A stretch of DNA of 64,000 nt from Octopus vulgaris. Taxonomy: Eukaryota. Within the stretch, counting starts at the first letter, position 1, and every line of letters begins with the position of its first letter. Where the stretch lies: NCBI GenBank assembly GCA_951406725.2, contig OX597821.1, forward strand, positions 109,988,001 through 110,052,000. Reading direction: 5' to 3'. Positions 3,724 through 55,063 of this stretch are shown here, one piece after another. Below the pieces are notes generated by a model, which was not told the origin of the DNA, ran no database searches, and saw only the letters and a list, made by a program, of their open reading frames with translations. A program made the translations under genes and the position numbers.

Positions 3724-5514
3724 GATATGTTCTGCATATACAATAACAGCCATACCAACAATCTAACAGACCTCCATCATCACCTGTCTAGTTAGACGTC
3801 ACTATGGTTTCGACACCTGGGCAGTAACATTCAATCCGGAGCATCAACAGCACTAAAATAAGTGTTGTTTGGGAACAAACATACCTTAGATATCACTACA
3901 TTCATTCAATCTTAATTCTAGGAAGGATCAAGCTCTGACATTATTAAGTAAACCACAAGAAAGAATCACATTTACCCTATATACAAAAACAGTGTCGGTA
4001 AATTAATATTTCTATAAATAAACCTATAATTAATTCCTAAAATATCTAACTAAATACCAAACTAGCCCATGCAGTCCATACAGATAATATTCCCACCAGT
4101 ATGTATGTGTATATTTACGTGTGTATATCTTCGAGTCTGTGTTCGTCCTCCTATCACCGCTTGACAAAACATGTTAGCGCTTTTACGTCTCCGTAACTTA
4201 GTGTTTCAGCAAGAGAGGCCGTTAGAGTAAGTAAGTACTAGGCCGACAAAAAATAGGTCCTGGGGTTGATTTCTTTGACTAAACCCCTTCAAGGCGATGC
4301 TCCAGCATGGCTGTAGTCAAATGACTGAAACAAATAAAAGAATAAAAGAATGAAAGAATACAACGAACTGAAGAGCGATGGTGAAAGAAGATATTGTGAA
4401 TATAATTAAAAGAGGAACAACGAAGTAGAAAGCCCAAAACAATACAATAGAACAATACGAAAGAAAAACAAAACAACAAAAGAGATACCCATAAACCGAT
4501 AGCACTGCTTATTGCTTATTGCTCCAGACGGGGCTGACCCGCCAATGTGGCATACAGACTTTGGTTTTGATTCAACTCTAGTCGTCTGGCGCCAGTGGAA
4601 GTCAACTGTTATACAAAATGACAGATTCCTTGCATGTCTCGCTGCTACGGGTTTACCCGAATGCGTTAGTCGCTCTTCTCTTTCTCTCTCTCTCTCTGTC
4701 TCTCTCTCTCTCTTTCTGTCTGTCTCTCTGTCTCTCTGTCTCTCTCTCTCTCTCTCTCTCGCTTTATCTCGCTTTCTCTCCTTCTCTCTCTCTCTCTCTC
4801 TCTCCTTTTCTTTTTATTTCTTCAGAATTTTTACCCATTCTCCAAACATGCGCATATTTACAAATACTCAGCCACATACTTGGACTCCGGTTATGATTCC
4901 CGGCACATGTGGTTCTGTCTGTGAGTGCCTTTCTGTGCGTGCGTGCGTGCGTGCGTGCGTGTGTACATGTATGTATATATATTTATGTGTATCTGTGTGT
5001 GTGTGTGTTTGTGTGTCTGTGTACGTACATATGGATATATCTATGTACATCTATGTATATATGTACATATACATATATATGTATATGTATGTATTTATAC
5101 TTATGTGTGTATATACACATGCTTGTAATATATGTATGTGTTTATGTGCGCTTGTGTATGTGTAGGTGCGAGCGTGCGTGTGATATATTTGTACGGATAT
5201 TGCATGTCTGAAGGTATGTACGTATTTCATGTCTGGACGTTTGAACTTGTCTGTCTCTGTGCGCATAAACATATGCAAATGTATGTTTGTCTCAGTCTAT
5301 ACGTACATATACAGACATACACATATGCAGACAGACATACATATATATAGACAGTCATATAGATAAATAAATAGATGGATAGATGGATAGATAGATATGT
5401 TTCTTTATTAGCCACACAGGGCTGCACACAGATAGAACAAATTACAAGGTAGAGCTTTTCTTTTGAAGGTTTAAGAAAGAAAAAAAAATAGATAGATAGA
5501 TAGATAGATGGATG

Positions 5515-33310: not shown

Positions 33311-33746
33311 GGATCTTTTTGGTTTGAACGGCAGTTTTTAAAATAATTTCCACGTAACTAAACACTTTTAAACTTCGTATACTGGTAGAATGTGTTTATA
33401 AAACATATTTTTCTCTTGGCTTCATTGAGAAAATTCTATAGTTTGTAAGCTATTTGTTGTTTTTTTCTTCAATTTCTGCAATTTCAACCAATCACTGACG
33501 TCCATTGAGGTAAGCAACATTCTGTGCCGTATAAATATGTCCCTCGTTTAAAAAACAGATTGGGTTTATTTACATTTGTGAAGAAAAAAGATACCCTTCC
33601 CTCCACCCCTAACCCTAACCGTAACCCTAACTAACCCTAACCCTAAAATAGATTGAAATGCAATAGATCGATACTAGGGTCATAATTATGAGTGACAATT
33701 TCATATGACACTGCTATAAAAAACTGCCTTCAAACCGAAAAGATTC
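33311..33746. mobile_element. Non-autonomous DNA transposon, 8-bp TSD, probably Merlin (hAT not excluded), with internal CCCTAA repeats
   Basis: TIRs GGATCTTTTTGGTTTGAACGGCAGTTTTT / AAAAACTGCCTTCAAACCGAAAAGATTC; perfect TSD ACTTTCTG at 33303-33310 and 33747-33754. Confidence 0.85.
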
Positions 33747-35057: not shown

Positions 35058-35143
35058 ATAAATATTAGGGAATAAATCCAAATTTACAGGGAAAAAATCA
35101 GATTTAGGATTAAATCCAATTTTATAGTAAAATATTATATAAT

Positions 35144-35284
35144 ATTATTAGAGACAAAACCACTATTTTGCAAAACAAACAAGGAAAGACTTAATCAATA
35201 CATAAAATTTTAATAAAAAGTCAAAATTTTATGTATTGATTAAGTCTTTCCTTGTTTGTTTTGCAAAATAGTGGTTTTGTCTCT

Positions 35285-35291
<7 letters not shown>
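35144..35291. repeat. Perfect fold-back hairpin (~67-bp arms)
   Basis: ATTATTAGAGACAAAACCACTATTTTGCAAAACAAACAAGGAAAGACTTAATCAATACATAAAATTTT followed, after a short loop, by its reverse complement. Confidence 0.95.
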
Positions 35292-35344
<53 letters not shown>

Positions 35345-36009: not shown

Positions 36010-36445
36010 ATTCAAAAGTCTTGCAATATTTTGGTAACCTATTTGGTTTCCTCATCAAGCAGCCTAGCATTCAAAGTAAAGGCTATCGTATTGTATGGCC
36101 TGAAGCTACCTTTCTGACAGTTCTTTGATCCATGTTGATACAGTTCTTGTCCTTCGAGGAGAAGAATTCCTTCGAGGAGAAGAATTCCTTCGAGAAGAAG
36201 AATTCCTTCGAGGAGAAGAATTCCTTCGAGGAGAAGCTTCCATCTTCTCTTCGTTGTTGAAGTGTCCTAAGCGCAGGAAGTGAGCCTCGAAGGACAACTA
36301 CTAGCATGGGATCAAAGAACTAGCAGAAAGGTGGTTTCAGACAGTGTAACACAAAGCCCCTACTTTGAATGATGGGCTGTTTGTGTTGTAACTTGACGAA
36401 TGAAGGACATAATTTACCAAAATATTGTAAAACGTTTTGACCCTT
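36010..36445. mobile_element. Mariner-derived fold-back: two inverted transposase 3' ends plus an 18-bp tandem
   Basis: Minus strand AHFLR..HFNNEEKMEAS..KEFFSSKDKN/../IKELSER; plus strand HGIKELAERWFQTV../YFE*; CCTTCGAGGAGAAGAATT x~5 at 36151-36237. Confidence 0.7.
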
Positions 36446-36481
36446 CGATAATATTTTCAGTAGCCCAACCATTACATTCCC

Positions 36482-36628
36482 AAAATTATGTACATTATTT
36501 ACCTTTGATGGATATTTGTCCTCATCTTGTTTGTTTTAAACACGTTTCGGCTGATGTACCCTCCAGCCTTCATCAGGTGTCTTAGGGAAATTTTGAACCT
36601 GGGTTCTCATTCCTAGGGTATTTTTCGA

Positions 36629-36697
<69 letters not shown>

Positions 36698-36769
36698 CAT
36701 CATCATCTTTATTGTTCAGGTCACTGCGTGTTCAGGTCACTGCCGAGTTCGATTTCAGGAAGTGACCTG

Positions 36770-36812
<43 letters not shown>

Positions 36813-37114
36813 GCAACAACAACAACAACAACAATAATAGTAATAATAATAATAATAATAATAATATTAATAATAATAATAATAATAATAATAATGATTA
36901 TAATAATAACAACAACAACAACACCAACAACATCGAAAAATACCTTAGGAATGAGAACCCAGGTTCAAAATTTCCCCAAGACACCTGATGAAGGTTGGAG
37001 GGTATATCAGCCGAAATGTTGTGCTAAGAACAAACAAGATGAAGACAAATAACCGTCAAATGTAAATAATGTAAATAATGCACATAATTCCTCATCTCTT
37101 AAATATAGAACTGT
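36482..37114. mobile_element. Palindromic Penelope-type insertion with two hammerhead motifs and an 11-bp TSD
   Basis: Arms at about 36485-36725 and 36759-37088 are reverse complements; ATTACATTCCC flanks both sides (36471-36481, 37115-37125); hammerhead cores at 36538-36581(-) and 36980-37024(+). Confidence 0.8.
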
Positions 37115-38320
37115 ATTACATTCCCTGTCGGTAACTCTTATTTGCATTGATTCCGTATCCCTTCGTTGGATTCTAGTTACTTCTTCCAGGATCAGGACTT
37201 ATTGACTGTGTTCGTTCATTATACTCCATTTCTTGACGTCTTCTTGCCTATTATATATTCTATAATACTATAAGCAATATAAAATAGGAAACAAGAAAAG
37301 TCACTAATAAATAATACTGTGATTCACGATAGAATCTCACGAAAAAGAAATTATAAAAGAAAACATAAGGGGAATCATTGTGGTAACTTTACTAGTGCCA
37401 CTTTACAATTCTAAATGAATCACGGTGAGAGACTGCATATGAAGATATCATATGATATTCTGAAATCTCGGTGACTTATCAGTGGATAATTTTGAGTCAG
37501 GCGTTGATGAATTCAGCACTCATGAAATAATTCTCATGACCCTTTGCGACTTAATACAGAACCCACGGATTGCTCTTCATTATAACAGCATAATTTGAAT
37601 ACGAGATCGTAGAAGTTTCGAAACGTCAGACCAATGGATTGAGGAATATTATTGTTTGAAAGCGAAAATGGATGAATACTAAAGGAATCCTTACTTATAA
37701 AGAACAAACTCGAAAACTATGGTGTTTTTAGTTTAACATAGTTACACTTTTTTCTTTTAACATAGTTACACTTTTTCATTTTTCCCGAGCGTCAAAACTA
37801 ATATACTTGTTTGTTGTTCATACACCTGTCTTCGTCATTTGTTTTTCTATAAATTTCAACTATATATATATATAGCTATGGTATATTCCATTAGGAATGT
37901 GGCGGAGTACAGTATAAACCTCGTCCACCCTTAGCATTACTCAATACTCTCCGGTAGCATTATTATATATTTTCAAGTTTACGTTTGGGCATTCGTCATG
38001 TGTGTATATATAGACACACTCTGGCAGCAAGCAACATGCATCTACTGGATGCTCCCGATTTCAAACCAAGTCAGACGGAGGGGATCGTCTTGAAATCGAG
38101 GTTTATAAACTGACGGAGGCAACACTAGAATGTCACCTGAGGAAACACAACTAGATCACATTATGCAAAGAAACAGTTGCATAAGCAAATACCTATATTT
38201 TGGGAGAACTTCGTTGCGTGGAAACATTTGTAGAGATTAAAAAATAACTGTTCAACCGTACTCCTTCAATCTTATGTGTATGTGTGTGTGTGTATGTGTG
38301 TGTGTGCGTGCGTGCGTGGG

Positions 38321-53572: not shown

Positions 53573-54961
53573 TTAATTTCTCTGTGTCAGTATGTTCGGA
53601 TGGTTGAGTCTGGGTTTGTACTTTTCAATGAAGAATGTTTCCTTGTTCAGTCTCATTTGTGTTGATGATCCGAAAGCACATTGGTAAAATGGGAAGATTA
53701 AAAATTGTGGCAGTAGTTGCTTTGCGCATTTCTCAATGTGCTCACTAAAAGGTATCATTCTATATTCTGGGAATGCAATCTGTTGTCGATGCAGTGTGCA
53801 TCTGCGCCTGAGTGATAGTCCCGTGGAACCCACGTAGTCTTGGTGGCAGCCCGAGCATTTAATAACATAAATTATGTTTTCAGAGGCACAAGTAAAGTTA
53901 GATTTGATCTTAAATTTCTGTCCCTCTTTAAAGAAGAATTCTGATCCTTCCAATAGGTTAGGACATGTTGCACAGTTCGATCTACCACATTTTTTTACTT
54001 TTGCATCCGTAATTTTAGAAGACAATTTTGCCTTTGTGAGAATCTTTTTAAGTGATTTAGGCTGTTTGTAGCTTTTAATGATTTGGTGTATGTTTAGAAT
54101 TTCCTTTAATTTGGGGTTTTTATGAAGTATTGGTAAATTCTGGGTGATGATGGTGAAGGCTTCTTTGTTTCTGGGGTTGTATGTAGATATGTAAGGTAGT
54201 ATTTTCGGGGAAGGTGTGTTGTTGTGTTGAACTTTTCTTAAAGTTTCTATGTTGATTTCTGTTGCACGTCTGATCCCATCCTCTATGAGTTGAGCTGAGT
54301 AATGTCTGTCAATTAGGGTGTTTTTGAGTTCTTGCAGTCTAAAGTTCCTGGTATTTTGTTCTGACACTATTGTGCATATCCTTCTTGCAAGGTTGAAGGG
54401 GATGTTTGTTTTAGTGTGTCTTGGGTGGCATGAATTAAAAAGAAGGTATTGTTTGGCGTCTGTGGCTTTGTAAAAAATGTCTGTTTCTATTTTAAGGTTA
54501 ATTTTTTTAATTAGTATATCCAAGAACGGTAGCTCCTTTTGGTTGTATTCCATTGTGGACTGTATATTTGGGTTTATGCTGTTCAATAGGTTTTTAAATT
54601 TTAGGAGTTTATCTATGTTTTCATTCCAGAGAATGAAACAATCGTCTAGGAATCGTTTCCAATTCTCTTTTATGTATTGAGAGAGGGAGTTTCCAAAGAT
54701 TGATAGAGATTCCTGGTAAATGATTATTTCCATGTATCCCATTGTTAAGTTCGCAATGACTGGTGCTGCCCTTGTACCCATAGCAATTCCGGATTTTTGA
54801 CGGTAAAATGTATTGTCAAACATGAAGTGGTTATTGTGTAGGATGAATTCAATTGATTTAGTAATGAATTCCTTACTGATCCTTTTTGGTATTTCTTCCG
54901 GAAATTGGTCTAACCAGAATTGTATTGCCTCCAGTCCATAATTATGAGGTATACTGGTATA
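53573..54961 (-). CDS. Penelope-like retroelement polyprotein (RT plus GIY-YIG endonuclease), 5'-truncated, probably Neptune clade
   Basis: YTSIPH, YRQKSGIAMGT..AP..ANL, KRFLDD, LPFLDI, YLLFNSCHP; Cys linker CGRSNCATC; NIIYVIKCSGC..YVGST..RR..H..E..FI...P.LN. The first 11 codons of ORF 53573..54994 are microsatellite. Confidence 0.93.
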   Translation of the reverse strand, partial: YTSIPHNYGLEAIQFWLDQFPEEIPKRISKEFITKSIEFILHNNHFMFDNTFYRQKSGIAMGTRAAPVIANLTMGYMEIIIYQESLSIFGNSLSQYIKENWKRFLDDCFILWNENIDKLLKFKNLLNSINPNIQSTMEYNQKELPFLDILIKKINLKIETDIFYKATDAKQYLLFNSCHPRHTKTNIPFNLARRICTIVSEQNTRNFRLQELKNTLIDRHYSAQLIEDGIRRATEINIETLRKVQHNNTPSPKILPYISTYNPRNKEAFTIITQNLPILHKNPKLKEILNIHQIIKSYKQPKSLKKILTKAKLSSKITDAKVKKCGRSNCATCPNLLEGSEFFFKEGQKFKIKSNFTCASENIIYVIKCSGCHQDYVGSTGLSLRRRCTLHRQQIAFPEYRMIPFSEHIEKCAKQLLPQFLIFPFYQCAFGSSTQMRLNKETFFIEKYKPRLNHPNILTQRN

Positions 54962-55063
54962 CACACACACATACACACATACATGTATACGCATGTATAT
55001 ATATATTTGTGAGTCTGTGTTTGTCCCCCGCGATCATTGCTTGACAACCGATGTTGGTTTGTG

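Follow-up and report, generated by a model that had tools for sequence, protein, structure and literature searches.

The palindromic insertion in the window

Two facing copies of one repeat lie at positions 36471-37125 of the window, that is, the whole 64-kb stretch of Octopus vulgaris DNA analysed here, and the question raised by this locus is what kind of element inserts in such a form and by which route. An earlier sequence-only reading had described a 633-bp palindromic insertion with an 11-bp target site duplication (TSD). This description was confirmed in its coordinates, its arms and its hairpin fold: the interval of 655 bp holds 633 bp enclosed by two ATTACATTCCC 11-mers, which occur just twice in the whole 64-kb window, both times flanking the palindrome, and the unique parts of the two arms are 88.7% identical over 151 nt. 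The RNA of 36471-37125 is predicted to form a single long hairpin of -310 kcal/mol, as compared with -102 +/- 5 kcal/mol for 20 shuffles, in agreement with the proposal that a read-through transcript would be long dsRNA. The pairing of the arms, which had been taken to be complete, holds for the (TTA)n and (AAT)n tracts; the (AAC)n tract is mostly looped out, and 25 nt of the right arm (37090-37114) are unpaired and have no counterpart in the left arm, leaving the palindrome asymmetric.

Read against other copies in the genome, each arm consists of a tRNA-derived head, a microsatellite and a tail, which together make up a terminal repeat (pLTR). The features of the insertion are as follows (coordinates, strand, description and, in brackets, basis).

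36471-36481, plus: left copy of the TSD, 11 bp (direct comparison; family TSDs are 7-16 bp)
36482-36744, minus: short arm, an inverted, 5'-truncated pLTR with its outer end at about tail position 161 of 189 (91% identity to the family tail, positions 1-151)
36538-36581, minus: minimal type-I hammerhead of the short arm, with a 3-nt deletion at the cleavage site, predicted inactive (sequence)
36629-36712, minus: (AAT/GAT)n microsatellite of the short arm, (TTA)n when read on the plus strand (sequence)
36713-36744, minus: last ~15 nt of the tRNA-derived head as a tandem duplicate with a 16-nt period (repeat scan and alignment)
36743-36744, no strand: junction of both 5' ends with a 2-nt overlap, CC (head 64-76 on minus, head 49-76 on plus)
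36743-36770, plus: head remnant of the long arm, positions 49-76 of 76, with the B box at 36746-36756 carrying one change and the A box absent (alignment to the head)
36770-36928, plus: (AAC)n(AAT)n microsatellite of the long arm (sequence)
36929-37114, plus: pLTR tail of the long arm, the 5' end of a Penelope ORF, with a putative ATG at 36951 and a premature stop at codon 34 (N-terminus of an 847-aa RT protein matched at 43% over 46 aa)
36980-37025, plus: minimal type-I hammerhead of the long arm, inside the reading frame, with a predicted cut after 37020 and two nearby changes (sequence against the features given in the available part of PMC4209133)
37090-37114, plus: Penelope-type 'tail' extension, on one arm only (arm alignment and fold)
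37115-37125, plus: right copy of the TSD, whose first 4 nt coincide with the element's continuation (comparison with copy L220)

The centre of the palindrome, overlooked in the earlier reading, is by alignment the remnant of two tRNA-derived heads, of which the long arm retains positions 49-76 and the short arm about 62-76. The two arms differ from the family majority at 9/137 and 7/140 sites. Because the A box is absent, the frame stops at codon 34 and both ribozymes are damaged, the window copy is, as judged from its sequence, a dead and inert insertion. No empty site of this insertion was seen, and no host exon was recognised among the window ORFs on inspection by eye. In one sample of a second organism, a contig of single-copy depth runs from the left flank through the 11-mer and 27-28 nt into the arm, with the right flank (37140-37310) uncovered; this single sample, with an arm overlap below the search threshold of 31 letters, gives a weak hint that the insertion is shared with the second organism.

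Several other repeats were observed in the window. An older self-inverted repeat adjoins the insertion at 36012-36440 (65% self-identity, with a central 18-nt tandem) and is multi-copy, being found at L009 and L062 and showing raised read depth. A perfect 70-bp inverted repeat with an 11-nt spacer is located at 35142-35292, a short interstitial (CCCTAA)n tract at 33607-33646, and a 486-aa open frame, a fragment of another Penelope-like RT-endonuclease, at 53573-55033 on the minus strand.

The Penelope-like element and its terminal repeat

In the searched assembly (2.8 Gb in 227 contigs), the terminal 30-mer of the arm has 3,462 exact copies (control, 0), giving the family at least this many ends in the genome, or at least about 1.2 ends per Mb; the arm used as a query gave 2,285 first-look candidates genome-wide. 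A sample selected by the 3' end was made up of 80 of the first 81 position-ordered copies of the 30-mer. Among these 80 copies, 43 are accompanied within 1.2 kb by an inverted short arm and 50 by some inverted part, while the 76-nt head lies upstream of the microsatellite in 52; at loci selected by the head, the tail follows in 28/30. The order of the pLTR is a tRNA-Arg-like head, (AAT/AAC)n and then ~55 codons of the element's ORF, with the hammerhead within. The tail hairpin is no more stable than its shuffles (z 0.8, -0.9 and -1.5). LINE 3' ends were also observed inside the (AAT)n of the pLTR, splitting head from tail (L060, L064, L096, L105, L054, L095, L011 and L171); these LINEs with a restriction-like endonuclease we take to be of the R4/Dong type. 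A ~550-nt repeat likewise splits head from tail in L002, L009, L017 and L027.

The same repeat is linked to a reverse transcriptase (RT) ORF: in L174 and L167, among others, the ORF ends immediately before the head, and in L207, L209 and L221 the tail reads in frame into the ORF. A genome search with this ORF gave 597 candidates, the best 39 of which, besides the query, are 91-93% identical to the query. In 30 ORF loci the ORF is terminated by this head and tail, which often recur in inverted form on its 5' side; none of these 30 copies has an intact frame, the longest being 301 aa. The Pfam domain RVT_1 was found in L203 and L206 (E~1e-10), and the translated window arm matches the N-terminus of the 847-aa homolog with 43% identity over 46 aa (E 4e-8 in a two-sequence comparison). 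A GIY-YIG-like motif (Y.I.C.C...Y.GET) is present in 3/9 copies scanned; in Pfam, the endonuclease gave no match in L225, an E of 0.23 in the closest full-length homolog P0005 (48% identical) and a match over the cut-off in P0007 (29% identical). From motifs rather than an RT tree, we provisionally take the clade of the element to be Penelope/Poseidon. As the repeat is joined to the RT ORF in longer copies, the window arms are, on alignment, the terminal repeats of a protein-coding Penelope-like retrotransposon. The suspected Penelope (PLE) origin is thereby upheld; the label 'non-coding' fails, since the arm carries the first ~55 codons of the Penelope ORF.

Two other sources were considered and dropped. 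A stand-alone SINE moved in trans was abandoned once the head was found joined to the RT ORF, and a young 781-aa Penelope-like family, together with other GIY-YIG matches, was set aside because the tail is absent from 30 + 20 of their loci beyond a 17-nt chance word. This second family (L141-L144, L155 and L156) has many 781-aa open frames, and its 3' repeat bears a variant hammerhead-like core (TTGATAA ... GAAAC). The same architecture is seen, in a very recent form, at L145, where a coding Penelope-like copy inserted in a (TA)n tract has an inverted 5' copy of 766 bp with 100% identity (1785-2550 and 4182-4947 in the orientation used).

One hammerhead per arm, each imperfect around the cleavage site, had been noticed in the earlier reading, and both motifs were found again, at +36985 and -36576, damaged near the cut site. 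The right-arm motif departs from the family letter at 37017 and 37024, and the left-arm motif has lost 3 nt at 36542/3, so that G now occupies the cleavage position. The calls were made on the features of the minimal hammerhead (min-HHR) listed in the available part of PMC4209133. As in the metazoan PLE min-HHR described there, the motif has a 5-bp helix I, an extra base before helix II, G10.1-C11.1, a palindromic 15.2-16.2 and no loop 3; unlike it (helix II of 7-8 bp), helix II here is 5-6 bp and both window copies are damaged. Rfam gave no hammerhead at the window insert (E<=10) nor in the better-preserved copy L030. The strict core is intact in 17/57 long arms and in the family majority, and no sign of selection on the ribozyme was seen in the genomic copies (core 94.5% vs 95.0%); the hammerhead boxes of the pLTR sit inside the Penelope reading frame, as translated from 36951. 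A 'double-ended ribozyme element' as a working unit is not borne out at this locus, where both motifs are decayed and would be locked in duplex.

What was found agrees with the description of EN+ Penelope-like elements: an RT in a single ORF linked to the repeat, direct or inverted pLTRs arising from truncated copies, a one-sided tail and a type-I hammerhead motif. Like these elements, for example PAc (Poseidon) of Anolis carolinensis with its C-terminal GIY-YIG, the octopus family has 5'-truncated copies with an inverted pLTR at the 5' end, a tail (30-40 bp in the published elements) on one end only and, probably, two RT start sites (PMC11167929, PMC8557442 and PMC8969392, in the parts available); like PAc, it has a hammerhead that overlaps the ORF start (same part of PMC11167929). 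In Schistosoma mansoni, dual min-HHRs lie 100-700 bp apart on opposite strands (PMC4209133, as far as available), so that such inverted pairs are known in outline; an analysis of TSD, tail or tRNA head was not found in the available part of that paper. Inverted pLTRs, one-sided tails and opposite-strand hammerhead pairs 100-700 bp apart are thus already in print (accessible text of PMC8557442, PMC8969392 and PMC4209133), and the origin of the inverted repeats and one-sided tail is called an undefined feature of the Penelope cycle in the accessible text of PMC8557442. The accessible portions of PMC6962438 and PMC7229834 hold nothing on the octopus element. Unlike the non-LTR retrozyme, which consists of head-to-tail tandem units with a hammerhead each (bioRxiv 10.64898/2026.07.22.740005, in part), the copies here are inverted pairs or singles, with a few partial tandems.

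The tRNA-derived head and Pol III

Octopus genomes contain the tRNA-Arg SINEs OR1 and OR2, and the head of the present pLTR is identical to the genome's tRNA-Arg(ACG) gene at 46/67 nt without gaps, in a comparison made with this one isotype and with a partly preset search pattern. Its A box matches exactly the consensus given in the available part of PMC8969392, and the B box lies 33 nt downstream. No tRNA fold was found in the head by ARAGORN (0/14 loci), and Rfam gave no tRNA match at the insert or L030; the A and B boxes and their spacing are kept, and the acceptor, anticodon and T stems are broken. A separate tract at G000:C2:211887716-211907120 was seen to hold a cluster in which a tRNA-Arg(ACG)-like motif is matched ~19 times, in many cases at a spacing of about 206 bp.

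The 5' ends of the copies cluster at the start of this head. Among 142 head copies, 55 are cut within the head, 76 end at -8..+4 and 11 continue upstream into the ORF end, so that 76/87 of the heads reaching the start stop there. The rate of 5' stops is ~0.16 per nt at the head boundary vs 0.009 inside the head, about 18-fold, and a start at about -2..+1 is kept by many arms even where truncation of the partner lies in the tail. The head start falls within a natural short palindrome, and fold-back at this palindrome may inflate the -7 peak (15/76) and part of the pile-up.

The ORF was further examined for runs of four T (T4) on the sense strand. Its majority sequence (2,331 nt) has 14 TTT and 0 TTTT, while the 30 ORF copies (47,068 nt) have 295 TTT and 14 TTTT, with 19/30 copies T4-free and 11/30 T4-bearing. 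The absence of TTTT gave P values of 0.012 with mononucleotide and 0.070 with dinucleotide shuffles, and of 0.042 and 0.006 with two synonymous controls on three natural segments. The ORFs of three other Penelope-like families in the genome have 9, 9 and 8 T4 runs; four LINE fragments from the window, of insufficient length for a T4 control, have 0, 0, 0 and 1.

Two readings of the head were weighed on these data. The stopping of 76/87 heads at the start and the lack of sense TTTT in the ORF point to Pol III as the likely source of the short RNAs; Pol III transcription of the full element is possible, though we lean slightly against it. Alternatively, the head may be a passenger, derived from an old tRNA or SINE that was picked up downstream of the stop codon by an element read by Pol II, in which case the pile-up would come from RT stalling or RNA processing. 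Such a passenger would account for the 11/87 heads that run on into the ORF end and would fit a TTTT depletion that is borderline under the dinucleotide control (P 0.07). However, the boxes and their spacing have been kept while the stems are broken, a pattern that speaks against processing by RNase P and against a strong structural stall, and each of the three other Penelope-like ORFs has 8-9 T4 runs as against none in the majority sequence. We consider the passenger explanation rather unlikely.

Unlike PAc (available part of the PAc report), the octopus pLTR has a tRNA-Arg-like A/B-box head at its beginning, followed by a microsatellite; this head is where most copies start, and the ORF has no T4 runs in the majority sequence. 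Like tRNA-derived SINEs (PMC8969392, in part), the family has an A/B-box head, a length of about 300 nt, thousands of copies and a 3' end in common with an autonomous retrotransposon; unlike them, the whole unit including the head belongs to the autonomous element and single copies are mostly without a TSD (1/18). The A/B-box head is a family property, the window copy having the B box only, and no separate non-coding family was seen. The SINE-like elements Sm-alpha and Sj-alpha of Schistosoma likewise have a Pol III promoter, putative in the octopus, followed by a hammerhead, but these are non-coding tandem repeats, whereas here the unit is the end repeat of an RT-coding element with the ribozyme in frame (PMC6765202, in part). 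The literature searched contained no coding Penelope with a tRNA-derived head in its pLTR; Repbase, Dfam, SINEBase, subscription journals and supplements lay outside the range of this search.

Paired arms and the mode of insertion

In a survey of 140 loci, inverted pairs numbered 64 and other long ends 56. Of the inverted pairs, 44/64 are flanked by a TSD of >=7 bp, with lengths of 7-16 bp and one of 23 in a TA run; together with the TSD at the window locus, this supports the claim of one integration event. Among head-and-tail copies without an inverted part, several of which run into ORF sequence so that their true 5' end is outside view, only 1/18 has a TSD of >=7, and that copy has a small inverted remnant. 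The sequence-only reading had suggested counting palindromic copies with TSDs; in the sample of 80 position-ordered copies, 43/80 are palindromic, with a TSD of >=8 in 28/43 of them, vs 4.4% of 838 mismatched pairs. In 23/44 cases the continuation of the element overlaps the TSD by 1-5 nt, as at the window, where ATTA, the first 4 nt of the TSD, is the element's own continuation in one ORF-linked copy, L220.

The outer ends of the arms follow a rule: short arms end at tail 135-160 and long arms at about 185-192. In sets not chosen by the 3' end, long/short pairs make up 28/30, with 2 short/short and 0 long/long (L223 is a complex locus); in the 3'-selected set, the inverted arm reaches 174 or 189 in 2/43. 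The inner ends of the 64 pairs are mixed, with the long arm further in 20, the short arm further in 18, both equal in 15 and 11 unscored, and the inner junctions vary from copy to copy. The 'MITE-like class' proposed earlier, in which a non-autonomous palindrome would move as a unit, has in its favour the inverted arms, the TSD and the thousands of copies. It is excluded as a serious candidate because the TSD varies in length (7-16 bp), the ends are asymmetric and the inner junctions are diverse; moreover, the same ends flank RT-coding copies. We regard it as very improbable.

The two arms of a pair also share variants. At three sites, minority alleles are common to both arms (2x2 tables 36/3/2/8, 46/1/5/7 and 31/2/3/7; p 1e-5 to 1e-4), with discordant pairs in 5/49, 6/59 and 5/43. 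Among 86 pairs checked, one was discordant at two sites (L074, arms ~1.9 kb apart) and several at a single site. Shared non-CpG variants amount to 0.95% within pairs vs 0.31% between pairs (0/2000 permutations), and the arms of one insertion are closer to each other than to other copies in 33/47 pairs with enough overlap (8.9% vs 10.6% difference). These shared alleles contradict, family-wide, the possibility raised in the sequence-only reading that the arms belong to independently inserted subfamilies. Two insertions lying head to head by chance might be entertained in a family with at least about 1.2 ends per Mb, and at the window itself the arms differ at 13/137 sites and share one minority variant only, at a CpG. 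Nevertheless, a single TSD brackets both arms, 43/80 copies have the two-arm form and the allele sharing holds across the family, so we find a chance encounter scarcely credible. The shared alleles do not distinguish between one RNA, two sibling RNAs and one arm copied from the other.

Copying of one arm from the other is what a fold-back would entail: the cDNA 3' end, aided by the palindrome at the head start, would snap back and copy itself, the hairpin would be resolved, and later apex deletions would vary the junctions. The shared alleles, the 10/64 pairs in which both heads are complete and meet at the natural short palindrome, and the short inverted-head remnants ahead of some heads (L179, L182 and L188) would all fit. 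If fold-back started from one fixed arm, however, that arm should always be further in, and the count is 20 vs 18; fold-back alone also leaves unexplained the link of the TSD to the two-arm form (44/64 vs 1/18). We therefore think it an unlikely course.

In L1 twin priming, too, each of the two nicks in the target primes synthesis on the RNA, and a single TSD then encloses an inversion; unlike the inverted parts of L1, which do not overlap, both octopus arms copy the same 100-250 nt. No report of twin priming for Penelope was found in the literature searched. In PAc, both target strands are cleaved and extended in vitro, and two RT start sites bound the tail (PMC11167929, in the part available). 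The start site shows no difference between strands in that assay, which counts against a model of one start per nick. Still, the simplest joint reading of the pair rules and the two-strand, two-start behaviour of PAc is that both nicks prime on one RNA, one per start site.

On this two-nick reading, Pol III would start at about -2..+1 of the head and yield a ~300-nt SINE-like RNA, longer where the ORF follows. The endonuclease would then nick both target strands 7-16 bp apart. Priming from one nick would use the outer start site (tail ~185-192), in many cases with microhomology of 1-5 nt (ATTA at the window locus), and priming from the other would begin about 25-45 nt further inside, in the A-rich loop of the tail hairpin. 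Both cDNAs would extend toward the RNA 5' end and stop independently, and their joining head to head, with a 2-nt overlap at the window, would give the palindrome and its TSD; the palindrome itself would be a by-product of insertion. Overall, the window locus is probably one dead insertion of two inverted, 5'-truncated pLTRs of a coding Penelope-like element, written by the enzyme of that element, with both nicks of the target serving as primers on one RNA whose start likely lay at a tRNA-derived Pol III promoter. A more far-reaching scheme is tentative and, in our view, doubtful: an autonomous Penelope transcribed end to end by Pol III, with a captured tRNA-Arg promoter, TTTT purged from its 2.3-kb ORF and its end repeat shed as a SINE, and long/short palindromes made by the two RTs of one dimer copying a single RNA from two starts ~40 nt apart.

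The shape with one long and one short arm likely records how Penelope-type elements insert. The family offers thousands of natural products obeying a sharp rule, namely a long and a short arm, matched alleles and a TSD tied to the two-arm form, and this rule makes the model of one RNA and two primers testable in the existing PAc assay. Read-through transcription of such palindromes could provide dsRNA for editing. Should the head function as a Pol III promoter, an RT-endonuclease would be translated from a Pol III transcript, of which no report was found in the literature searched, and a coding retrotransposon and a SINE would be two outputs of one element.
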